Of a stretch of DNA of 64,000 bases, positions 12,474 through 27,665 are shown piece by piece (position 1 is the first letter of the stretch; each line of letters starts with the position of its first letter). The stretch is from positions 2,284 through 66,283 of the forward strand of contig JAHJEV010000003.1 in NCBI GenBank assembly GCA_018825365.1, given 5' to 3'. The translations under genes and the position numbers were made by a program. Source of the stretch: Patescibacteria group bacterium. GTDB lineage: Bacteria; Patescibacteriota; WWE3; UBA101185; UBA10185. Under the pieces are notes generated by a model. The model saw only the letters and a list, made by a program, of their open reading frames with translations. It searched no databases and was not told the DNA's origin.

Positions 12474-12914
12474 TCACTTCTGGATAATAATTTCTTTCCC
12501 ATACAATTGTTGTTTCACATTATGTTTTATTTCTTCGGAAACGGATTTATTCTTGACAAGTTTCATAATTTCTTTTGGGTCATCGTCAGCTGCTATTCTA
12601 TTTAAATTAACTTTTCCACATTTTTCACAAATGTGCATAAGCATAAGTTCCCCTATCTTTGCTTTCTTCCACTTGCCATCACGGCTTTTTTTGAACGTAA
12701 CTCCGACAGGATGCATCTTCCCCCCACATTTTGAAAGTCTGTCTCCGGTTTTTGTTTCATCAACGTGTTTGCTCCAAAGACAAAATGGGCAATGATTTCT
12801 ATTTCTTGTACCGATATTTCCAATTGCCGAAACATGTTTGCCACAGTGCAAACATTTAAAGTTTTCTTTGATATTGCTTTTCACACTCCAATTATATCTT
12901 AGATTCCTGTACAA
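12474..12914 (-). CDS. RNHCP domain protein (paralog 1)
   Basis: RNRNHCPFCLWSKHVD plus CxxC pairs (CLHCGKH, CEKCGK) form an RNHCP/zinc-ribbon signature. Its start lies only about 8 bp from the divergent pilD start. Confidence 0.7.
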   Translation of the reverse strand: MYRNLRYNWSVKSNIKENFKCLHCGKHVSAIGNIGTRNRNHCPFCLWSKHVDETKTGDRLSKCGGKMHPVGVTFKKSRDGKWKKAKIGELMLMHICEKCGKVNLNRIAADDDPKEIMKLVKNKSVSEEIKHNVKQQLYGKEIIIQK

Positions 12915-12921
12915 TAATTTT

Positions 12922-13806
12922 ATGCAGACATTGTGTTATATTTTTCTTTTTTTAGGCGGCGCTCTTATCGGATCTTTTTTAAACTTGGTTTCTGATCGTC
13001 TTCCAAAGCGTAAGCTGATTATTTTTGGAAGATCCAAATGTGATTTTTGTAACAAACCCCTTGAGCCTAGAAATTTATTCCCTATATTTTCTTTTCTTTT
13101 CCAAAAAGGTAGGTGTTCCTTTTGCAAAAAGAAGCTTTCCCTTTACTACCCCCTTTCGGAGATCTTATCTGGTTTGTTATTTATAGTTGCCGGTTACGCA
13201 TCCAGATTTTTTCAAGTTCCATCATTTGCAACTCTTATTACCTTTATCTTTTATGCCGTTGTATTTAGTTTTTATCTGATTATTTCTCTGACGGATTTGA
13301 AGAAATGTATTATTCCTGACGAAGTTGTCTATCCAGCTATTGGTTTTACTGTTTTATATATTTTATTTTCCAGAGCTTATGATTTTTTGACTATGAAAAA
13401 AGCTCTGTCTAACGATCAACTTGGGGTTTATCTTATAAAAGTTGGATACCTTAATAGTCAGCTTATGTTCGCGCTGAAAAATCTTGGTTTAGTTTTATTA
13501 GGAGCGGTTATTATCTGTTTGTTTTTTATGTTTCTGGTTTGGATCACAAAAGGAAGGGGGATGGGATGGGGAGATGTAAAACTTGGATTTTTAATAGGAC
13601 TTGTTAACGGGTTTCCTTATGGATTTGAGGCGATATTTTTCGGGTTTGTGCTTGGAGCTTTGTATAGTTTGATTTTAATAATATCCAAAAGGAAAACCAT
13701 GAAAGACACGATCGCATTCGGTCCTTTCCTCATCATGGGAAGTGTGCTTACTCTTTTATATGGGGTCAGAATTTTTGATTGGTATACGAGTATAGGGATG
13801 AGGTAA
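12922..13806 (+). CDS. pilD: Prepilin peptidase PilD (A24 family)
   Basis: N-terminal CDFC...CSFC zinc motif, multiple transmembrane segments, and the catalytic DLKKCIIPD and GMGWGDVKL motifs. Start taken at MQTLCYIF. Confidence 0.85.
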   Translation: MQTLCYIFLFLGGALIGSFLNLVSDRLPKRKLIIFGRSKCDFCNKPLEPRNLFPIFSFLFQKGRCSFCKKKLSLYYPLSEILSGLLFIVAGYASRFFQVPSFATLITFIFYAVVFSFYLIISLTDLKKCIIPDEVVYPAIGFTVLYILFSRAYDFLTMKKALSNDQLGVYLIKVGYLNSQLMFALKNLGLVLLGAVIICLFFMFLVWITKGRGMGWGDVKLGFLIGLVNGFPYGFEAIFFGFVLGALYSLILIISKRKTMKDTIAFGPFLIMGSVLTLLYGVRIFDWYTSIGMR

Positions 13807-13855
13807 CTGGAGAGATTCTTAAAATTTTAGGCAAGGAGGAAGAAGAAAAAATGAT

Positions 13856-14456: not shown

Positions 14457-15752
14457 CTAAGACGTTATGACATTTCTATTATAAGTAACTCTCCCGCTTT
14501 CATCCAATAACCACAGTCCCTTGTTCCACTCTCCTGTGTATGGATTGTATGTGCACCGGGGGTAGGGGGACTCCGCTAGACTAAGTTTTCCACCACAGCT
14601 TCCAAACGACAGAGCTCTGCAGTCGAAACAACAATATCTGTATTCGCAGTCTTTACATACCAAAACACTGTCCTTTGTAGATTTCCAAATGTCTTGAACC
14701 TGCTTACGCTCAACAAGGTTTGTGAGGTTGGTTTCTTTGTAATTTCCCAGAATTGTCCCACGAAGGAAGATACAAGGTAGGAAATCCCCAAATTCTGTCA
14801 CAGTCAAGCAGCCCTTAAGGCACGAATTAAAAGACGTGTGGTTACAAAGAGACTCTTTGTTAGTCTGGAAGTTTGGTTCCATCAGACAACCGTATTTAAG
14901 TATGTACTTCATGTCCGGCAAGAGTGTGGAGTTGTTACCCCGACCGGTAGGCCTCAAAGGGTCTATTTTACTAGATTGTATTCCAAGTTCCCTTTTAAAT
15001 TTTAGGGTTTCCTCTATGGTTTCCTGGTTAGCTCTCATTAACACGGTTTCAGCTCTTACTAGAACACCGAGGTTTCTTAACTGCTTTATTACGGCCACGG
15101 TTTTTCTGTGACTTCCGGGAGTTCTGGTAATGTAGTCGTGAATCTTCTCATCATGGGAGTAGATAGTTGTGGCGATTTTCAACCCCAGACTTTTTATTCG
15201 AACGATGTCTTGGCTTTTAACCAGTGTGAGATTACTAAAGATTTCGATACTGTTAAAACCTATTTCTATGGCATACTCCGCTAGATCCAGGACTGTTTCT
15301 TTGTTACTACCCCTGAATAAGAAAGGTTCCCCGCCTATAAACTGACCCCTCTTACACCCAAGATCTCTTGCCTCTTTTATTAATGAGACCCAACCCTCAA
15401 ATCTTATCGGAGTTTGGTTGCAGTAAACATCCTTATTTCCTGCTTCACCAGAATCCACGTAACACTGAATGCATCGTTCGTTACAGCGCGAAGTGCAGAT
15501 TTCAAACCACACAAAGTTCAGATTTGCCTGTCCTTCGTCTTTGGGAAGTTTGCTATAAGAATGCCTAGAACATTTTGTTGCCAAACCCAAGTTTAGAAGT
15601 TTTTCCCAATAGGCAGCATCACTTGATTTATTAGATAATATACCTACCGCTGCCTGGTTTATTGAGTATACGTTTCCGGAGTTTGTATCTAGTATTGCCC
15701 CTCTGTGAACTCCCTTTACTAAATAGACACCCTTACCAAGTTTGTATTTCAT
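14457..15752 (-). CDS. Radical SAM/SPASM-domain peptide-modifying enzyme with N-terminal PqqD/RRE-like domain
   Basis: CNERCIQC is a CxxxCxxC radical SAM motif. The C-terminus is Cys-rich SPASM (CNHTSFNSCLKGC...VCKDCEYRYCCFDCRA...C). The first ~80 aa (YLVKGVHRGAILDTNSGNVYSINQAAVGIL) match the PqqD-like RiPP recognition element pattern. Confidence 0.85.
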   Translation of the reverse strand: MKYKLGKGVYLVKGVHRGAILDTNSGNVYSINQAAVGILSNKSSDAAYWEKLLNLGLATKCSRHSYSKLPKDEGQANLNFVWFEICTSRCNERCIQCYVDSGEAGNKDVYCNQTPIRFEGWVSLIKEARDLGCKRGQFIGGEPFLFRGSNKETVLDLAEYAIEIGFNSIEIFSNLTLVKSQDIVRIKSLGLKIATTIYSHDEKIHDYITRTPGSHRKTVAVIKQLRNLGVLVRAETVLMRANQETIEETLKFKRELGIQSSKIDPLRPTGRGNNSTLLPDMKYILKYGCLMEPNFQTNKESLCNHTSFNSCLKGCLTVTEFGDFLPCIFLRGTILGNYKETNLTNLVERKQVQDIWKSTKDSVLVCKDCEYRYCCFDCRALSFGSCGGKLSLAESPYPRCTYNPYTGEWNKGLWLLDESGRVTYNRNVITS

Positions 15753-16630: not shown

Positions 16631-16786
16631 TTACTTTGGATTACAAGTTCTTGGATAACAGGATGGTGCACATGGACCGTTGGGGGCGCAATTTGGATTA
16701 CACCTAGAGGGTCCTTTCCTGTTGTTTGTCACGAGCTTTATCTCTGGTTTCTCACGGTTTTTCAAATCAGTTGTTGCGGGTTTCAT
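16631..16786 (-). CDS. Small Cys/Pro/Asn-rich peptide, candidate RiPP precursor (51 aa, below the ORF-track cutoff)
   Basis: MKPATTDLKNREKPEIKLVTNNRKGPSRCNPNCAPNGPCAPSCYPRTCNPK. A strong SD (AAAAGGAGATCATA-ATG) precedes it. The sequence shows a charged leader plus a repetitive C-x-P-x core with 5 Cys. It lies on the same strand as the downstream rSAM/SPASM enzyme. Confidence 0.55.
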   Translation of the reverse strand: MKPATTDLKNREKPEIKLVTNNRKGPSRCNPNCAPNGPCAPSCYPRTCNPK

Positions 16787-16995
16787 TATGATCTCCTTTT
16801 CTTCTAGCACTTTTCTATCTTTATGTTGTTATTCTATCACTTCTTGTAAAGCTGTGGGTACTTGACACACCATTCCCTTGGGGAACTTCTAATAGATTCT
16901 GTTTTATATTCAGCTCGAGGGGATATTAATTAAAATTGTTATAGGATTTATGGTAGCCAGATTGTCCAGAAAAGATTGTCCTTATATTTTGGTAG

Positions 16996-18461: not shown

Positions 18462-18758
18462 TTGGATATGGCAAGAAGATTTCAGAAAAAACTTGAGAAT
18501 TTCAAATGTGATAATTGTGGATACGAAGTTGTTGGATTCGGGTACACAAATCACTGTACCCAGTGTTTGTGGAGCAAGCATGTTGATATATTTCCCGGAG
18601 ATCGGAAGGAGGACTGCAAAGGTTTAATGAGGCCAATTAGGATTGAAAAAAAGAAAGATGGGTATGTGATAGTTCACAAATGTGAGAGGTGCGGGGAGGA
18701 AAGAAAAAACAAGGCATCCCCGCAGGATAATTTTGAGCAGATTATAAAAATAAGCTAA
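18462..18758 (+). CDS. RNHCP domain protein (paralog 2)
   Basis: YTNHCTQCLWSKHVD plus CDNCGY and CERCGE, the same motif set as 12474..12914. Confidence 0.7.
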   Translation: MDMARRFQKKLENFKCDNCGYEVVGFGYTNHCTQCLWSKHVDIFPGDRKEDCKGLMRPIRIEKKKDGYVIVHKCERCGEERKNKASPQDNFEQIIKIS

Positions 18759-18814: not shown

Positions 18815-19228
18815 ATGTATATGGATGAAAATAAAATTCCAAAAAATAATATTTTGATAATAGAAGATGAGCAGGATATTAGAGAAATTTATGTTGAGGT
18901 TTTGACCAATGCTAAATACACGGTAGATCAGGCTGCCGATGGGGAGACGGGGATGCAAAAGATAAAAGAAGGAAACTGGGACCTTTTACTACTTGATATA
19001 ATGCTTCCCGGAAGGGACGGACTTAAGATACTAAAGGAGATTAAAGAAACCCCCGGACTTAAAAAAGGTCCTGTTATTGCTCTGACTAATTTAAACAGCG
19101 AAAACATTATTCATGAGGTTTTTACTTCGGGAGCGGACGGGTATCTGATTAAAAGTGAAATTACACCGGATAAGGTAGTTGAAGAGATTGCGAAGGTTTT
19201 GAGTAAAGAGGAAGAAGAAAACAAGTAA
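18815..19228 (+). CDS. Stand-alone response regulator receiver (CheY-like)
   Basis: ILIIEDE, the phospho-acceptor DLLLLDIMLPG, the T (ALT) and the K (YLIKS). No output domain. Confidence 0.85.
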   Translation: MYMDENKIPKNNILIIEDEQDIREIYVEVLTNAKYTVDQAADGETGMQKIKEGNWDLLLLDIMLPGRDGLKILKEIKETPGLKKGPVIALTNLNSENIIHEVFTSGADGYLIKSEITPDKVVEEIAKVLSKEEEENK

Positions 19229-20034: not shown

Positions 20035-20161
20035 AAACATTATTCACGAGGTTTTCACTTCGGGAGCGGATGGGTATCTGATTAAAAGTGAAATTACACC
20101 AGATAAGGTAGTTGAAGAGATTGCGAAGGTATTGGGTAAAGAGAAAGAAGAAAACAAGTAG
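20035..20161 (+). pseudogene. Diverged duplicate of the 3' end of the response-regulator gene (gene fragment)
   Basis: About 127 bp at roughly 90% identity to 19102..19228. It keeps the frame (NIIHEVFTSGADGYLIKSEITPDKVVEEIAKVLGKEKEENK*) but has no 5' part. Confidence 0.6.
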
Positions 20162-20189: not shown

Positions 20190-20753
20190 TTAGACTCTTT
20201 TAGCATTTTGTTTCTTTTCTCTATAGTCGTAAAAGATTTGTTTGAGAGTGGCAAAAGAAGTTAAACCAAAGTCATGCGGATCAAGACCTGTACCAAATAG
20301 TTCGAACAACTCCCACTCTCTGTTAGGGTCTAAGCATATTTTTTTAGAATCAGGATCAACAAATATTGTATTATCCTCCAATACTACTTCAGCAAAGGCA
20401 TGACCTTTAATTGGCTCTTTTGTACCGTTTGGATCCAGATCCAACCATCTTTTCGAGATGGTCTCTAAGTACCTAGTGGAGTAACCCTCAGCTCTCATTA
20501 AGGTACAAAAAACTATAGTGGAGTCTGTGCATCCTGTTACGAAGCCGCTTTTCAATATTTCCTCGGCTGTTCGGGTATGAAATAGTTTAATCCAGTCTTC
20601 GGGGCGTTTCTTGTTTAGGTTTTTGACCATATAGCCAAGTACATATGCAATATACTCAATAGGTTTAGTACCTTTCGGCTTTAACTTTTTGGCTATGTTG
20701 CAAATATATTCAGTTTTTATGGTCAGATGACCATCTTCTAAAAATGTAATCAT
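20190..20753 (-). CDS. Transglutaminase-like cysteine protease superfamily protein
   Basis: GCTDSTIVFCTLMRAEGYSTRY with downstream GHAFAEV and D give a Cys-His-Asp core. Start taken at MITFLEDG; the upstream track extension runs into the GC-rich island. Confidence 0.5.
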   Translation of the reverse strand: MITFLEDGHLTIKTEYICNIAKKLKPKGTKPIEYIAYVLGYMVKNLNKKRPEDWIKLFHTRTAEEILKSGFVTGCTDSTIVFCTLMRAEGYSTRYLETISKRWLDLDPNGTKEPIKGHAFAEVVLEDNTIFVDPDSKKICLDPNREWELFELFGTGLDPHDFGLTSFATLKQIFYDYREKKQNAKRV

Positions 20754-20799
20754 GGCGTAAGTATAAGCTGGGTTTTGAGGTATCACAACAAAACCCGGC

Positions 20800-21085
20800 T
20801 TCTTCGAATCTACGCTGAGGCATCGCGTTCTGCGAGGGCTGCCTGCAGCACTTTGATCTTTCCGTCCACGTGCTCGTACATACCGGATCAAACCCTGCAG
20901 AAGGGGGCAATTTCAGAGCACGTTCCATCGCCTTGGTAGCGTTCGTAGGTACAACCGTTGTTGCAGATCTTGGCCCATTTGCATGAGCGCATACTTGACA
21001 CTTTGTCGGCAGTTCGGTACGTAAGCGGGGCCAATCTTGATACTTTTCCTGTGCGAGAATCTCGGTGAGTGGGTGCGCGTTTAGC
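20800..21085. other. GC-rich island in an AT-rich context (function unknown; contains a candidate 34-aa Cys-rich ORF at 20878..20982, minus strand)
   Basis: About 280 bp that is visibly GC-richer than its flanks. Minus-frame ATG..TGA encodes MRSCKWAKICNNGCTYERYQGDGTCSEIAPFCRV (5 Cys) but has no good SD. The plus frame is also open, which is typical of GC-rich DNA. Confidence 0.2.
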
Positions 21086-21767
21086 TATTTGTTAATAACT
21101 CTACAGCGGATCTTAATATTTCATCGGGGCCCACCCATTTTTTGGACATATATAATTCTCGAAGTTTTTTCTCATCGGTGTATCCGGATTGTTCTGGATT
21201 CGTGAAAAAAGTAAGGCTTTCCTTAAGTAGTTGATAATTGTTATTTCCAAGATCTTTTTCTAATTGAGGATAATAATGAAGAAACATAAAATGATTTAAT
21301 TCATGTTTTGCTGTACTCAACTGAATCTGCACAGGAGATTTATGAAGGAAAAAATATCTTTTCTCGAAATTATATGGGCAGATAATATTAGTAGTGATAA
21401 AAGCGGTAACCTCGTCAAAAGGAAACTTTTTATTATAGAAAGTTTCAAGTTGATATATAACTTGATTTCCAACACTTTTCCACGTATCGTTAATTTTTTT
21501 AATATTCCCTCCCATTTCTGATTCTTTTTCCTTGTAATTAAGTCTTAGATACTCGAGTATCCGTCTGGATTTTTGCTCATTAGTGTCTCCGCTGTGAAAA
21601 ACATCCTGTATTTTTTGAGGAAGTCTATTTACTATGGATTCACTTTTGTTAACCTCGCCGTATGAGTATCCGGTGTCTCCGAAAAATCTAGTATAGTTCC
21701 ACAAATCTTTATCGATGGAATATTCAATGTTTAATTTCATAAGGATAGTATAAAAAAAGCTACCCAC
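21081..21767 (-). CDS. HExxH-motif protein, paralog of 15800..16564
   Basis: AKHELNHFMFLHYY contains HExxH. Its size is similar to the other paralog, and it shares an aromatic/W-rich region upstream of the motif. Confidence 0.45.
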   Translation of the reverse strand: MGSFFYTILMKLNIEYSIDKDLWNYTRFFGDTGYSYGEVNKSESIVNRLPQKIQDVFHSGDTNEQKSRRILEYLRLNYKEKESEMGGNIKKINDTWKSVGNQVIYQLETFYNKKFPFDEVTAFITTNIICPYNFEKRYFFLHKSPVQIQLSTAKHELNHFMFLHYYPQLEKDLGNNNYQLLKESLTFFTNPEQSGYTDEKKLRELYMSKKWVGPDEILRSAVELLTNS

Positions 21768-21802
21768 TTATGCAAAAGCATGTAGGTAGCTAGTTGAGAT
21801 AA

Positions 21803-21916
21803 TCACGACTCATCCTCGCAGTCTTCACAATCTTCGTAGCATTCAACACAATCTACTCCTTCACAATCGATCGGCACACAATCGGGTACGGAGCATTCTG
21901 CGCTTTGTGAAGACAT
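21803..21916 (-). CDS. Small Cys-rich acidic peptide (37 aa) immediately upstream of the HExxH paralog
   Basis: MSSQSAECSVPDCVPIDCEGVDCVECYEDCEDCEDES from an internal ATG of the 90-aa track ORF. It has 8 Cys, and its arrangement mirrors the 16631..16786 / 15800..16564 pair. No strong SD. Confidence 0.3.
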   Translation of the reverse strand: MSSQSAECSVPDCVPIDCEGVDCVECYEDCEDCEDES

Positions 21917-22055
21917 CTTAGCTCGTAAAATTCGAGTGTCAAGTACCCCTTTTTTAGGACTGGTATTGTGAGTGTGTCTGAAGATACTTCTGTTTGAAGA
22001 CTGCAGGAGGCATCTTAAGTCTCGTATGTATTCTTTGGTTATTGTGATAGTTAAT

Positions 22056-22676
22056 CTATTGATGTATTGCCTCAACTAACTCTCCAATTGAATTAAACCT
22101 ATCAAACTCAAGCCCCAGGTCTGTTTTGAAGTTTGAGTAGAAGGATTCCTGGTATCCATTCTCCCAGGGAGATGCTTTCTTGCTCATAGATATTGTTATT
22201 CCAAGATACTTTGCAAAATCTGTGTATCCTTTGCAGTTATATTCCGATCCCTGATCCGTGTGTACCACCTTTGGAAGTTTGTACCCGGTACTTTCAAAGG
22301 CGGAAAGGAGGGCATCAAGCACGAGCTCTTTAGTATGTTTACTAGAGACCGACCATCCCTCAATCTCTCTTGTGAAAAGATCCATAAATGTTGCCAGATA
22401 CATATATCCCTCCTTGTATTTTATATACGTGAAATCCCCCACGTAGGTAATATCAGGAACAATGGGAAAGAGACCTTTTATATGATTCTGATATATTGCG
22501 GGAGGGTTTCTCTCATCTCTTCTTTTCCTTAAGTGTTGTTTTCTTTTGGTAGGCTTAATACCAAATCTTTTCATTACTCTCCTAACTCGTTTCTTACCAA
22601 TACCCAAAGCTAAAGCTACTCTTCTGTGTCCATAGGCAGGATTATCCTCCAGAACAGAAAGTATTTGTTCTCTCAA
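22056..22676 (-). CDS. IS3-family transposase OrfB (integrase core; frame open upstream toward orfA)
   Basis: DDE/rve motifs with IS3 OrfB architecture. It is probably expressed as an OrfAB fusion by a -1 frameshift. Confidence 0.8.
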   Translation of the reverse strand: MREQILSVLEDNPAYGHRRVALALGIGKKRVRRVMKRFGIKPTKRKQHLRKRRDERNPPAIYQNHIKGLFPIVPDITYVGDFTYIKYKEGYMYLATFMDLFTREIEGWSVSSKHTKELVLDALLSAFESTGYKLPKVVHTDQGSEYNCKGYTDFAKYLGITISMSKKASPWENGYQESFYSNFKTDLGLEFDRFNSIGELVEAIHQ

Positions 22677-22809
22677 AACCTCATCCTTGTTTGGAAGTTT
22701 AGCTTGGTAATACAGGCAGGATCTGGAAGTACCAAGTGCCTTTGCTATATATGTCTTTGTGGATTTGGAGATGAATCTAGTTGATCTAGTTTTGGAAAGA
22801 ACAAGTGAT

Positions 22810-23061
22810 CTAACCTCTCCTATTTTTTTTAAACTTGGAAAGCTCCAAGGAAAGCATCCCGATAATTTCCTTTAGTTCCATGTTCTCACGCTTAAGTTTA
22901 GCGTGTTCTATAGTGGAAACAGTTCCGATAGCTTTGTTTCTAAGCCACCCATATATTGTTCTAAAGTGTATCCCGTACTGCTTTGATAACTCAACTACTG
23001 GTATTCCTGATTTAACCTTACTAAGTACCTCATCCTTAATATCTTTAGACACATTAGTCAT
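22810..23061 (-). CDS. IS3-family transposase OrfA
   Basis: The 83-aa HTH protein (GIPVVELSKQYGIHFRTIYGWL) followed by a leucine-zipper-like segment. Confidence 0.8.
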   Translation of the reverse strand: MTNVSKDIKDEVLSKVKSGIPVVELSKQYGIHFRTIYGWLRNKAIGTVSTIEHAKLKRENMELKEIIGMLSLELSKFKKNRRG

Positions 23062-23102
23062 AGAAACCTCCTTAAATTATCCTGAAATTTATTACCTACA
23101 TT

Positions 23103-23642
23103 CTAATGGAGATTCTCAGAATATGTGTCTAGTTTAATGGGTACCTCCCATTGGTGTATAGATACACGGTTTGGTATCAACTCCTTCTTAGCCTTTCTAC
23201 CACAATGTTTGGTTCTGTGTTTCTTACCCTGTTTAAGATCTTGATAAAGCTTTTCTCTTACGCAGTACGGGTTTTTATATATCCAGTTATATATCGTTTC
23301 ATTACAGCAAGGAATTACATCGACAGTTTCAAGATCAATACGAAGTTCAATCCTGCCCCTAATGGCATCAGGAGACCAACCGGATTTAAGTTTTTCAATG
23401 ACGTAGGATTGTGTCTTTGAGTCAGATAGTTTAGGTCTTTTCCCACATCTGCCGCGTTTAGTATCATAGTCGATTTGAGCGATATCAAAGAAGTACCCTT
23501 TTGGTGTAGATCTGTTATTAATTTCCCTGCAGATCGTAGATTTATCTACACCCAGTTTTCCGGCTATTGCCGAAACTGTATACTTTTCATCAAGCAATAC
23601 TTCTATTGCTTTCCGATCTGCAACGGTTATATGTTTGTGCAT
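23103..23642 (-). pseudogene. IS30-family transposase, N-terminal fragment truncated by the IS3 insertion
   Basis: HTH regions (TVSAIAGKLGVDKSTICREI, KLKSGWSPDAIRG, ETIYNWIY) run up to IPNRVSIHQ, which normally precedes the DDE domain. The DDE domain is absent. Confidence 0.7.
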
Positions 23643-25367: not shown

Positions 25368-27665
25368 ATGGTTAAGTTCAGTAAATTTAGATTTTTAGTT
25401 ATAATTCCCCTTTCGTTTTTACTATTTTTTTTGTTTTTTACACTCAAAAATCGTTTATCTGTTGTTTATGCAGCTTCTTGTACAGCGACAGATTGTCCCT
25501 CTGGTTGGTACGTTTGTCAATACGGAACTATGTGCTGTAAAGGTAAAGGTTGCCCGAGTTATGCTTGTGGCTACTATGATTGTTTGGGCTGGGAGTATAA
25601 ATGTGGTGCTTGCAACATATTTGAGTGTTTGCCTGACACTGTAACTTACGACTGTTCTTATAATTCTACCTGTTATTACACTGGTACCTGCTCTTACGCC
25701 TCTACCTGTTCTTATAATTCTACCTGTTATTACACTGGTAGCTGTCCTTACGCTTCTACCTGTTATTACACTGACAGCTGTTGTAGAGGTGGGTATTCGT
25801 GTGGGTGGCATGGGTGGAAATATTCCTGTTCCTATGACTCCTGCAAAAGCACCTATGCTTGCACCAAATCCTTTTCCTGCACAAAATACTATTCCTGCCA
25901 ACAATCCTATTCCTGTACCAAATCCTATTCCTGCACAAAGTACTACACTTGCCAAATCCCCTATACCTGTAAAATTTCCAAGACATGCACTCGTATCGAA
26001 AATGTGTGCAAATGGCGCACTTATGAAGTAGGGAATTGTGAGAAATGTCCATTGCAGTCATATTGTAAAAAGGGTTGGGGTATTGTGAAATGTGATGGAG
26101 CATGTATGATCTGTGTTCCTAGTGTACCTCCCACACCTCCCTGTTCAGCTGTAAACGGTGGTTGGTCAGCATGGAGTGCGTGCAGTGGCTGCAGCCAGAG
26201 TCGGTCATGTACTAATCCGGCACCTTCATGTGGTGGATCCGGTTGTTCGGGAATCGCCACGCAAGCCTGCGGTACTGTAAATGGTGGCTGGTCAGCATGG
26301 AGTGCGTGTCTTTCAACGTGCGGACCGGGTACAATAACTCGTACCTGCTCAAACCCCTACCCTGCTTGTAGCGGAGTGGACTGTTCCCTTCTTGACGGTG
26401 GTAATTATTCTCAAGCCTGTAACGCAGATCCATCTTTACACACATACACACTAAGTATCACTGTAAAGGAGGCACCTACCGATACGTGCCCCGCAACAGG
26501 TACTGTACAGGGTGATACTTTGGTTTCAGTGTATAATGCCGGTAATAATCAAGTTATCTTTTCAGGATATACCCCGGCCAGTGGTGTAATAACTATACCT
26601 GGTATTAACATAGCAATTAAAAACTTTAATATACAAGCCTCAAAAACAGTACCCGGACCAAGTCCTGATGTCTACGACTTAAAATGCCCAAGTACAGGTA
26701 TAGCCTTAGTGTCTGTAAATCCTACTGCCTGTTCAACTCAAAGTGTAGATTTAGGTATCAAGAAACGTCCTAAATTCCCATGGAGTGTTGTTTTAGATGG
26801 GGATGTATATGCTATGTCTGTTTCAACTGCGGTTCCCTCAGGTTTGGCAGCTGGTGGATTTACCAACTATCTCATAAACTACCCATCTTCAATTGGGGGT
26901 ATTGTTCTTGCTAAGGATCTTATACTTACCGATTCATCAAGAGTATACAAGTCCCCGTATGGAGCTTTGTCTCAAAGACTACCATCCACAATTCCCGGTG
27001 GAGATGTGGCACTATCCAGATTTCAATTTACTCCTCCAACTCACAGCGGAGTTAAAACTTTAGCTTTGCCATCTTCCGCAAATCCAATCAGGTTTGACTC
27101 GGACGTAGTTGTATACAAGGCATCAGTAAATGATTTTAATACATGGCTTACGGGAGCAAATCCCACATATCTGGTGCAACACCAAGGTAAACTTGCCATA
27201 CTTTACCTTACGGGAGGAAATGATCTTATCTTTTCTCATGGTTTAAGAGCTATTGGTGGTGCCGGAGGTGGAAGGCTTCTTATCATCACAAACTCAAGGG
27301 TTAAGATATCAAAAGAAGTCGGATCCGCTATTGCATCATATGAGGCCTCTTCCGATCCTAACATTATGGCAGCTATTATATCCTCAGGGGATATCATATT
27401 TGAGTCCCAAGGCACAAGTCCAGGAACCGATATCCCTATTATGGTTGCAGGCCCTCTTGTTTCCAAGTCAACCGTAAAACTTCAAAGAGACCTTGGGGAT
27501 ACCAACAATGGTTTGTATCCTGCTCAATCAGTAAAATATTATCCTAAGTTTCTTTATGATATATCCTCAACCGAATACACACAAAAAGATATGCCAAACT
27601 ATACGGGATTCAGGTCCTTTGATGTTCAGTTTGTATATGATGATTGGAATACTTATCCTTACTAA
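25368..27665 (+). CDS. Secreted Cys-rich protein with two thrombospondin type-1 (TSP1) repeats; candidate pilus-associated adhesin
   Basis: Signal peptide, then a Cys/Tyr/Ser/Thr low-complexity repeat region. Two tandem repeats read [10 protein letters not shown]...C...TCG.G...R.C.NP.P.C (the WSxWSxC TSP1 signature) at about 26150..26400. A long C-terminal domain follows, and the gene ends 15 bp before the PilX-like gene. Confidence 0.8.
25653..25760 (+). repeat. Perfect-to-near-perfect 54-bp tandem duplication inside the TSP1 gene
   Basis: tgttcttataattctacctgttattacactggta(c/g)ctg(c/t)(t/c)cttacgc(c/t)tctacc occurs twice in a row. It encodes the [19 protein letters not shown] units. Confidence 0.8.

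Follow-up and report, generated by a model that had tools for sequence, protein, structure and literature searches.

A Cys/Asp-rich micro-ORF and an HExxH gene in a Patescibacteria contig: probable remnant of a degraded radical SAM peptide cassette

Organization of the locus

The window analysed here, a stretch of 64,000 nt from contig JAHJEV010000003.1 of a Patescibacteria group bacterium, contains a micro-open reading frame (micro-ORF) for a peptide rich in Cys, Asp and Glu, followed by a gene for an HExxH protein. The same window harbours an intact cluster (cluster 1), which comprises a radical S-adenosylmethionine (rSAM) gene, a 59-aa peptide gene and a gene for a 254-aa HExxH protein. The genes and features of both sets are as follows.

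21803..21916 (stop counted), minus strand: micro-ORF of 37 aa, Cys/Asp/Glu-rich, MSSQSAECSVPDCVPIDCEGVDCVECYEDCEDCEDES, from the ORF listing
21758-21791, minus strand: hairpin with a U7 run at 21751-21757, located after the peptide stop and before the HExxH start
21081..21740, minus strand: 219-aa HExxH...E gene, intact; HELNH codons at 21291-21305, invariant Glu codon at 21219-21221
16631..16810, minus strand: cluster-1 Cys-rich precursor, 59 aa, with an …EKPEIKLVT… leader and a CNPNCAPNGPCAPSCYPRTCNPK core; a homologous peptide occurs in locus L028
15800..16564, minus strand: cluster-1 HEYLH protein, 254 aa, remote paralog of the 219-aa protein (profile and model comparison)
14457..15752, minus strand: cluster-1 rSAM/SPASM maturase, of another subfamily than the maturases beside the micro-ORF relatives

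The first-pass annotation of this DNA described a Cys-rich peptide followed by an HExxH protein as occurring twice on one strand, and both sets were located on the minus strand, ~5 kb apart. The micro-ORF lies upstream of the 219-aa gene, and the spacer is 62 nt. The HExxH gene was earlier given as encoding 228 aa; the gene itself stood, and its length did not. The longest frame has 228 aa and opens with GTG at 21767. On sequence grounds, the true start is almost certainly the ATG at 21740, which gives 219 aa (MKLNIEY...), because the deposited 219-aa protein (P0001) and all homologs (MKL...) begin there and the GTG falls inside the conserved terminator hairpin.

The spacer hairpin was overlooked by a simple terminator scan and was detected by folding (dG -19.5 kcal/mol, z -5.2 against shuffles). 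It was also found at two related loci (L001 and L035), in which a G-C pair has been exchanged for C-G as a compensatory change. Together with the U7 run, it is predicted to be an intrinsic terminator or attenuator. A conserved TATACT box, which is a promoter-like match, is located 7 nt 5′ of the HExxH ATG and is overlapped by the hairpin/U7 region; therefore, the HExxH gene may possess its own promoter and a leaderless transcript.

Relatives and coding status of the micro-ORF

The core of the micro-ORF is composed of three tandem C-X3-D motifs (CSVPD, CVPID, and CEGVD) and an acidic Cys-rich tail, and further C-X1-2-D/E motifs are also present. A search with a peptide profile recovered four called full-length relatives of 46–51 aa (P0180-P0183) from independent assemblies, with an LG[IVF]LR leader. 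Their sequences are listed below.

Relative 1: MTGSVALGFLRSNVSSMCADTDDCSVDDCVSIDCEGVDCVECDCEDEEE
Relative 2: MNDSVSLGILRSS...DCDDCSVDDCESIDCEGVDCAECDCEDESEES (internal start of an 83-aa call)
Relative 3: MSPKDLGILRQFDIVKESDDCSVEDCESIDCEGVDCAECYNDCDNG
Relative 4: MDLEELGVLRPTAFAYGASDDCSVDDCESIDCEGNDCVQCDCVECDCEGYG

The surroundings of these peptides were inspected at three loci. In L035, the 49-aa peptide gene overlaps the stop of a SPASM-domain gene, of which the C-terminus is present, and precedes an HExxH gene (61% identical). The 51-aa peptide gene of L037 overlaps the end of a 450-aa rSAM gene and is followed by a different, shorter HExxH protein. The best NCBIfam match of this rSAM was the PapB ranthipeptide maturase family (116 bits, against a cutoff of 340), and QhpD ranked third. 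In L001, the rSAM is a frameshifted 3′ remnant; after it come the peptide gene, with an AAGGAG Shine-Dalgarno (SD) sequence 8 nt before its ATG, and the HExxH gene.

The earlier remark that the micro-ORF has no convincing SD was confirmed in the window, and the L001 relative carries AAGGAG. The doubt about the reality of the micro-ORF that went with it did not hold. The ratio of nonsynonymous to synonymous divergence (pN/pS) in this frame was 0.18–0.35 at a pS of 0.6–0.85 among the window, L001 and L035 copies (0.33–0.35 for the window copy against the other two), and because of these values the frame is read as a real coding sequence under purifying selection. The idea of a chance ORF beside an HExxH gene that alone is real can point to the lack of an SD and to a length of just 37 aa. 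Such an origin is scarcely credible, and is already contradicted by conservation: the gene calls of independent assemblies include four full-length homologs, the synteny is kept, and the low pN/pS goes together with near-saturated synonymous change.

None of the NCBIfam precursor models matched the micro-ORF, and neither Pfam nor NCBIfam gave a family for ten precursor peptides. PapB joins a Cys sulfur to the C-beta of Asp or the C-gamma of Glu at CX3D motifs (PMC9413430). Judged from its motifs and alignments, the micro-ORF appears to be the core region of a ranthipeptide-like precursor without its leader.

Breakpoint and insertion sequence

In DNA alignments with L001 and L035, good similarity extends from the HExxH start across the hairpin and the core of the peptide as far as ...CTCGAATTTTACGA, and it stops abruptly at 21936/21937. 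The features around this breakpoint, and one further candidate remnant downstream of the HExxH gene, are as follows.

21917..21936, minus strand: leader remnant TRILRAK, in frame, with no start codon and no SD (DNA and peptide alignments)
21937..23100, minus strand: insertion sequence (IS) of IS3 type, with orfA at 22810-23061 and an rve-domain orfB ending at 22056 (Pfam rve, HTH_21, HTH_Tnp)
23103..23642, minus strand: 179-aa ORF with a helix-turn-helix (HTH) domain only (Pfam HTH_38, E 5e-11) and no catalytic domain
20897..20989, minus strand: possible SPASM C-terminal remnant, 31 aa, CKWAKICNNGC...PFC

The TRILRAK remnant corresponds to SLGILRSS in L001 (...LGILRSS in the relatives). The window lacks approximately the first seven codons of the leader, the start codon, the SD and the entire rSAM gene, and no PapB-type rSAM/SPASM maturase is adjacent to the window micro-ORF. 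The SD is absent because the 5′ end was replaced by IS3-type sequence. The sole ATG in the window frame yields the leaderless 37-aa product. A TTGACA box lies in the last bases of the IS end and faces outward, with TAAGAT 16 nt downstream; this promoter-like site overlaps the ATG of the micro-ORF, and therefore no translatable message would arise for it.

The right end of the IS3-type element was placed by inference at 21937, where the element begins with TG (TGTCAAGTACCC...). An A8 run (22823-22830, minus strand) at the end of orfA, between orfA and orfB, is a possible -1 programmed frameshift site for an orfAB transposase. No second full copy of the element was found, and L033 is the same locus in another assembly. 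The 13-mer GTGTCAAGTACCC at the inferred IS end (21936-21948, plus strand) recurs exactly, in the opposite orientation, at 16855-16867 (minus strand), just upstream of the cluster-1 precursor gene, and ~12 of 18 further positions match. Only ~0.002 such matches were estimated by chance, which supports a repeated element end. The second copy may be a solo IS end, so that both peptide loci may have been rearranged by the same element. The 179-aa ORF stops at the inferred beginning of the IS3-type element. Its HTH_38 domain is known from IS30-type transposases, and the ORF looks like a fragment of a second transposase. The recurrence of the 13-mer also suggests that IS activity rearranged the whole stretch of 16.8–23.7 kb.

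The SPASM-like stretch at 20897-20989 gave weak matches (TIGR04085 E 8.6e-4 with 19.7 bits against a cutoff of 27; tblastn E 0.003; hidden Markov model (HMM) E 0.005). It lies downstream of the HExxH gene within a patch of high G+C content (50–53%, compared with ~35% around it), and it may be a further rSAM/SPASM remnant. A tblastn search for more rSAM remnants around the module returned this short stretch and noise only.

The patch as a whole (20700-21100, 46–53% G+C against ~35%) separates the HExxH gene from a transglutaminase-like gene (20190-20891), whose true start is probably internal (MITFLEDGH). It may be what is left of an older or foreign gene. A longer rSAM pseudogene with frameshifts in this patch was also considered and was rejected, as no signal was obtained.

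The HExxH...E protein family

A word-indexed search returned 15–16 close homologs for each of the two HExxH proteins, and none of them contained a Pfam domain. An exhaustive HMM search for the 219-aa family detected 591 clusters (50% identity) at E<=1e-3, of which 278 passed E<=1e-10; almost all were single-domain proteins of 210–240 aa. Only four residues were invariant in an alignment of 119 diverse members: the H, E and H of HExxH and a later Glu, 23 residues past the second His. In the AlphaFold2 (AF2) model, HELNH falls within a predicted helix (138-157), and the invariant E175 (220-aa numbering) is on the helix 161-180, where it would serve as a metal ligand. By sequence and model, the family appears to carry the signature of a gluzincin-like metalloenzyme, in which an HExxH motif and a Glu on the following helix lie behind a small sheet.

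Neither Pfam nor NCBIfam searches assigned the 219-aa protein, the 254-aa protein or their homologs to a family. Among the 119 members, the sub-threshold Pfam matches were M78 (four members), SprT (two), WLM (one), and DUF6782 (one). An assignment to M78/ImmA, raised in the first-pass annotation, was not borne out: PF06114 did not match the window protein, and its four matches (best E 6.5e-4) were below the gathering score. Foldseek comparison of the 219-aa and 254-aa models with the PDB gave no significant match. The best matches of the 219-aa model, all weak, were mostly catalytic domains of M1-family zinc aminopeptidases; for the 254-aa model, M1 enzymes, a lanthipeptide zinc peptidase and a member of M61 were among the few weak peptidase matches. 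Nothing significant came from searching PDB sequences with profiles of the HExxH families. On the sequence and model evidence, the 219-aa protein is likely a peptidase, and removal of a leader peptide seems the somewhat more probable of its functions. We found no description of the HExxH...E family in the literature; Pfam and NCBIfam contain no model for it, and none of its relatives has a solved structure.

Another possibility is that the HExxH proteins are Fe-dependent oxidative tailoring enzymes, similar to the alpha-ketoglutarate (alphaKG)-HExxH proteins, that would alter Asp, Asn, Pro or Cys of an rSAM-crosslinked peptide by hydroxylation or another modification. The alphaKG-HExxH enzymes have a zincin-like fold, occur as partners of rSAM enzymes or fused to them, and act as hydroxylases of Asp, His, Gln and Pro (PMC12636437, PMC13060819), and the HExxH...E triad of PolE binds Fe (PMC12614342). 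The precursor cores are Asp-rich, and the tandem HExxH paralogs found in some loci would suit distinct tailoring steps. Against this, none of 15 members matched the relevant NCBIfam models at E<=10, including the alphaKG-HExxH model (IPR026337/TIGR04267), and the window protein had no NCBIfam match at E<=1. No significant PDB match was obtained, no alphaKG-HExxH entry was recognised among the matches listed, and the cluster-1 core contains no Asp. Patescibacteria are mostly anaerobic fermenters without a tricarboxylic acid (TCA) cycle, and O2/alphaKG chemistry is therefore less likely in them. On balance, we regard oxidative tailoring as unlikely.

Relationship of the two HExxH proteins

The resemblance between the 219-aa and 254-aa proteins that was noticed at first sight reflects a homology that is remote. 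BLASTP of one against the other detected no similarity (E 0.93), and a narrow profile-profile comparison (alignments of 15 and 17 sequences) was suggestive, with a probability of 46% (E 2e-4) and the HExxH motifs aligned. When the wide profile of the 219-aa family was compared with the alignment of the 254-aa family (hhalign), the probability reached 96.6% (E 5.9e-10) over 204 columns. This alignment spans the region from the N-terminal strand to the C-terminal Trp, with the conserved Glu of both families in register (E175, in 220-aa numbering, with E186 of the 254-aa family). The AF2 models, with predicted local distance difference test (pLDDT) scores of 90.8 (219-aa) and 91.5 (254-aa), have an identical order of secondary-structure elements. 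A strand comes first, followed by three short helices and a long helical hairpin; two or three strands then precede the HExxH helix and the Glu helix, and two more helices come last. The case for homology depends on the in-register match of the wide profile, since the narrow profile and BLASTP were insufficient. Profiles and models thus indicate that the two proteins are remote paralogs.

Genomic context of the HExxH genes

The genome collection comprised 24 loci, of which 17 were labelled Patescibacteria/candidate phyla radiation (CPR), five were labelled as metagenome-assembled genomes of uncultured Gammaproteobacteria, and two as "bacterium". An rSAM/SPASM gene of a single subfamily was located directly upstream of the HExxH gene in eight of these loci (L006, L008, L012, L014, L018, L021, L023, and L024), and two more contained rSAMs of other subfamilies (L007, PapB/QhpD-like; L009, FibroRumin-like with 375 bits). 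In the metagenome collection, an rSAM ORF was present in 31 of 80 loci; where the upstream sequence reached 1.5 kb or more (40 loci), it was present in 20. When all neighbourhoods were compared with one another, no neighbours other than rSAM and HExxH genes were conserved. The two HExxH proteins belong to an unannotated superfamily whose members, found mainly in Patescibacteria, repeatedly accompany rSAM/SPASM peptide maturases.

Between the rSAM and HExxH genes there was usually a small ORF on the same strand, with a hydrophobic leader motif, (P)G-I/V/L-I/V-x-L/M (i.e., G-h-h-x-h), and a Cys/Asp-rich core at the C-terminus. Examples were found in L008, L012, L014, L018, L021, L024, L041 (three copies), L046, L057, L059, L064, L072, L077, L081, L083, and L085. 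Such same-strand Cys/Asp-rich ORFs adjoin homologs of the 219-aa protein in many independent loci, and the pairing of the micro-ORF with its HExxH gene is therefore not due to chance. For the 254-aa family, an rSAM/SPASM gene was adjacent in every locus examined, and a Cys-rich peptide was found in the window, L028/L029 and L030. The association of the HExxH family with rSAM genes is strong but not universal.

Variation on this arrangement was seen at several loci. In L041 (1624-2847), a single rSAM has three paralogous genes for Cys/Asp-rich precursors downstream of it, with LPGVVV and LPRIVV leaders; one of them precedes the HExxH gene and two follow it. Barely related HExxH proteins, with HEMLH and HELTH motifs, occur beside a 219-type gene in L034 (1-834) and after the same precursor type in L037 (2611-2925), which looks like an interchange of small zincin-like partners. 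Several other loci hold two HExxH paralogs. In L030 (4001-7143), genes of the 254 type and the 219 type stand in tandem beside a single rSAM, convergent with it and with a Cys-rich precursor (…CGSGACRDCACLCNCCNCHH…), which suggests that members of both paralog families can serve one pathway, perhaps as a pair.

Trans use of the cluster-1 maturase deserves consideration here: the 37-aa peptide would be a second substrate of the rSAM at 14457-15752, and both HExxH proteins would serve one pathway. The tandem genes of L030 are in line with it, as is the intact state of the 219-aa gene, and PapB-type enzymes can show promiscuity and partial independence of the leader (PMC9413430; PMC12715619). However, the relatives of the peptide have their own, different rSAM/SPASM directly upstream (full-length and PapB-like in L037, a SPASM C-terminus in L035), which resembles the window rSAM only generically. 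The window peptide has no leader, start context or SD, and the 37-aa and 59-aa precursors share no core similarity. Trans use is thus quite improbable, and the earlier proposal of alternate precursors for the same maturase was not upheld.

Placement of the cluster-1 rSAM itself in the subfamily of the micro-ORF's cognate maturase was also tried and was rejected, as only generic rSAM and SPASM motifs align.

One homolog was found in a different setting, without rSAM or peptide: its neighbours in L002 (1144-5027) are a copper-type P-ATPase, an HMA/cupredoxin protein and a CsoR-like repressor. This locus bears on the view that the peptide is a metallothionein-like metal chelator, with the HExxH protein as a metal-handling or immunity partner and not a processing enzyme. 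The peptide is extremely rich in Cys, Asp and Glu, the L002 homolog adjoins a copper ATPase and a CsoR-type repressor, and Cys-containing RiPPs that chelate copper, the bufferins, are known (PMC12452194; RiPP, a peptide made by ribosomes and modified after translation). Nevertheless, the metal-gene neighbourhood was seen at this one locus, which has no peptide; the recurrent neighbour of HExxH genes is the rSAM/SPASM gene; and no signal peptide or membrane segment is obvious in the sequence of the HExxH protein. A chelator role is very improbable, and no evidence was found for the peptide/immunity pair that had been suggested earlier.

Origin of the micro-ORF/HExxH pair

Taken together, the micro-ORF and the 219-aa HExxH gene are probably the remnant of a degraded three-gene RiPP cassette of the ranthipeptide-like kind, in which the HExxH partner is intact and likely a leader peptidase. 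The cassette order in close relatives is an rSAM/SPASM maturase, a precursor of ~50 aa (LG[IVF]LR leader and C-X3-D repeat core), the hairpin and the HExxH protein. By analogy with PapB and QhpD, the rSAM would form thioether rings from Cys to Asp/Glu in the core. The hairpin after the precursor gene would yield more precursor than enzyme transcript, and the small zincin-like HExxH...E metalloenzyme would most likely remove the leader. In the window, IS3-type sequence abuts about codon 7 of the precursor, which lacks its start codon, ribosome-binding site and part of its leader, and the rSAM gene is absent. The leaderless 37-aa product is probably not made or not processed. The earlier description of a peptide/peptidase family stands as far as the recurrent, conserved pairing is concerned; the two-gene unit does not, and is better seen as a decayed three-gene rSAM cassette.

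Several points weigh against a cassette remnant with a leader peptidase. The window ORF keeps its ATG and its frame, and some expression of it is possible. About half of the HExxH loci (e.g., L002 to L005) have no rSAM or precursor nearby, and therefore the HExxH protein may have another role or act in trans. All fold and Pfam matches of the family to peptidases were below significance, so that its function is proposed from sequence, model and context, and HExxH(+E) sites also bind iron in oxidative RiPP enzymes (PMC12636437, PMC12614342, PMC13060819). As to the IS3-type element, no convincing terminal inverted repeat was found and its left end is undefined; the exact event, either insertion with deletion or recombination, can thus only be inferred.

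On a broader reading, the HExxH...E proteins of 220–250 aa would form a new class of RiPP tailoring metalloenzymes. Their substrates would be Cys/Asp-rich peptides with thioether crosslinks, whose rings they might, for instance, remodel by oxidation or hydrolysis, and paralogs would in some cases work in pairs. We consider such a class doubtful. If it were true, these proteins would mark a large unexplored family of radical SAM peptides in the ultra-small Patescibacteria.

Other features of the window

A direct repeat of 126 nt (94% identical; 19102-19227 and 20035-20160) duplicates the 3′ end of a response-regulator gene (18815-19228). Its copies flank ~0.8 kb of locally higher G+C content with a 191-aa ORF on the minus strand, and a third, weaker copy of the last 54 nt was found at 13796-13849. 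A 765-aa predicted secreted protein is encoded at 25368-27665 (plus strand); the N-terminal third consists of 18-nt (6-aa) Cys/Tyr/Ser/Thr repeats, which appear as two repeat families at the DNA level. Two RNHCP-domain zinc-ribbon proteins (12474-12914, minus strand, Pfam E 1e-27; 18462-18758, plus strand, Pfam E 1e-28) are located within 6 kb and flank the rSAM cluster and a two-component system.

Significance and comparison with known systems

HExxH proteins of rSAM peptide clusters have recently been shown to perform unexpected chemistry, and the clusters themselves were already known. What is new here is an unannotated HExxH...E family, of which about half of the members lie beside rSAM/SPASM genes and Cys/Asp-rich precursors, in Patescibacteria, a group with almost no studies of its secondary metabolism. 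The intact cassette is a simple three-gene system testable in E. coli, and the HExxH gene is a marker for small precursor ORFs often overlooked by gene callers. The window copy is decayed and of little functional interest alone; it shows that what looks like a two-gene module can be an orphan peptide/enzyme pair left behind by an insertion sequence.

The micro-ORF resembles the precursors of ranthipeptide systems (PapA/PapB, freyrasin; QhpC/QhpD) in its tandem Cys-X3-Asp/Glu core motifs, and the L037 rSAM/SPASM scores best on the PapB family model, with QhpD third. It differs from PapA/PapB in that this rSAM remains at 116 bits against the cutoff of 340, the precursors match no NCBIfam precursor model, a dedicated HExxH partner is present, and the window lacks the rSAM and the leader. 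The alphaKG-HExxH hydroxylases (ChlH domain, BpmH, PflC/PosC, and PesO; IPR026337) are likewise small zincin-like HExxH proteins in RiPP clusters, where they often accompany rSAM enzymes or are fused to them (PMC12636437, PMC13060819). In contrast, the family described here has no match to their sequence model and no recognised PDB match, and its hosts are mostly anaerobic CPR bacteria.

With the minimal zincins (M78/ImmA-IrrE, SprT, and WLM; M1 core), the family shares the HExxH helix, the Glu on the next helix and a small beta-sheet before them, together with weak Pfam and Foldseek matches. Unlike them, it reaches no curated threshold, its N-terminal helical half (~100 aa) has no counterpart, and its Glu lies 23 residues past the second His. 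The closest published remark on this system concerns CPR RiPP loci in which SPASM enzymes occur with unclassified zincin peptidases that were predicted to remove leaders (Makarova et al., 2022, PMC8939145). Compared by description, these graspetide/SPASM loci share their hosts with the cassettes described here, and their leaders carry a short proline/hydrophobic motif; however, they are defined by ATP-grasp ligases, none of which is present here.

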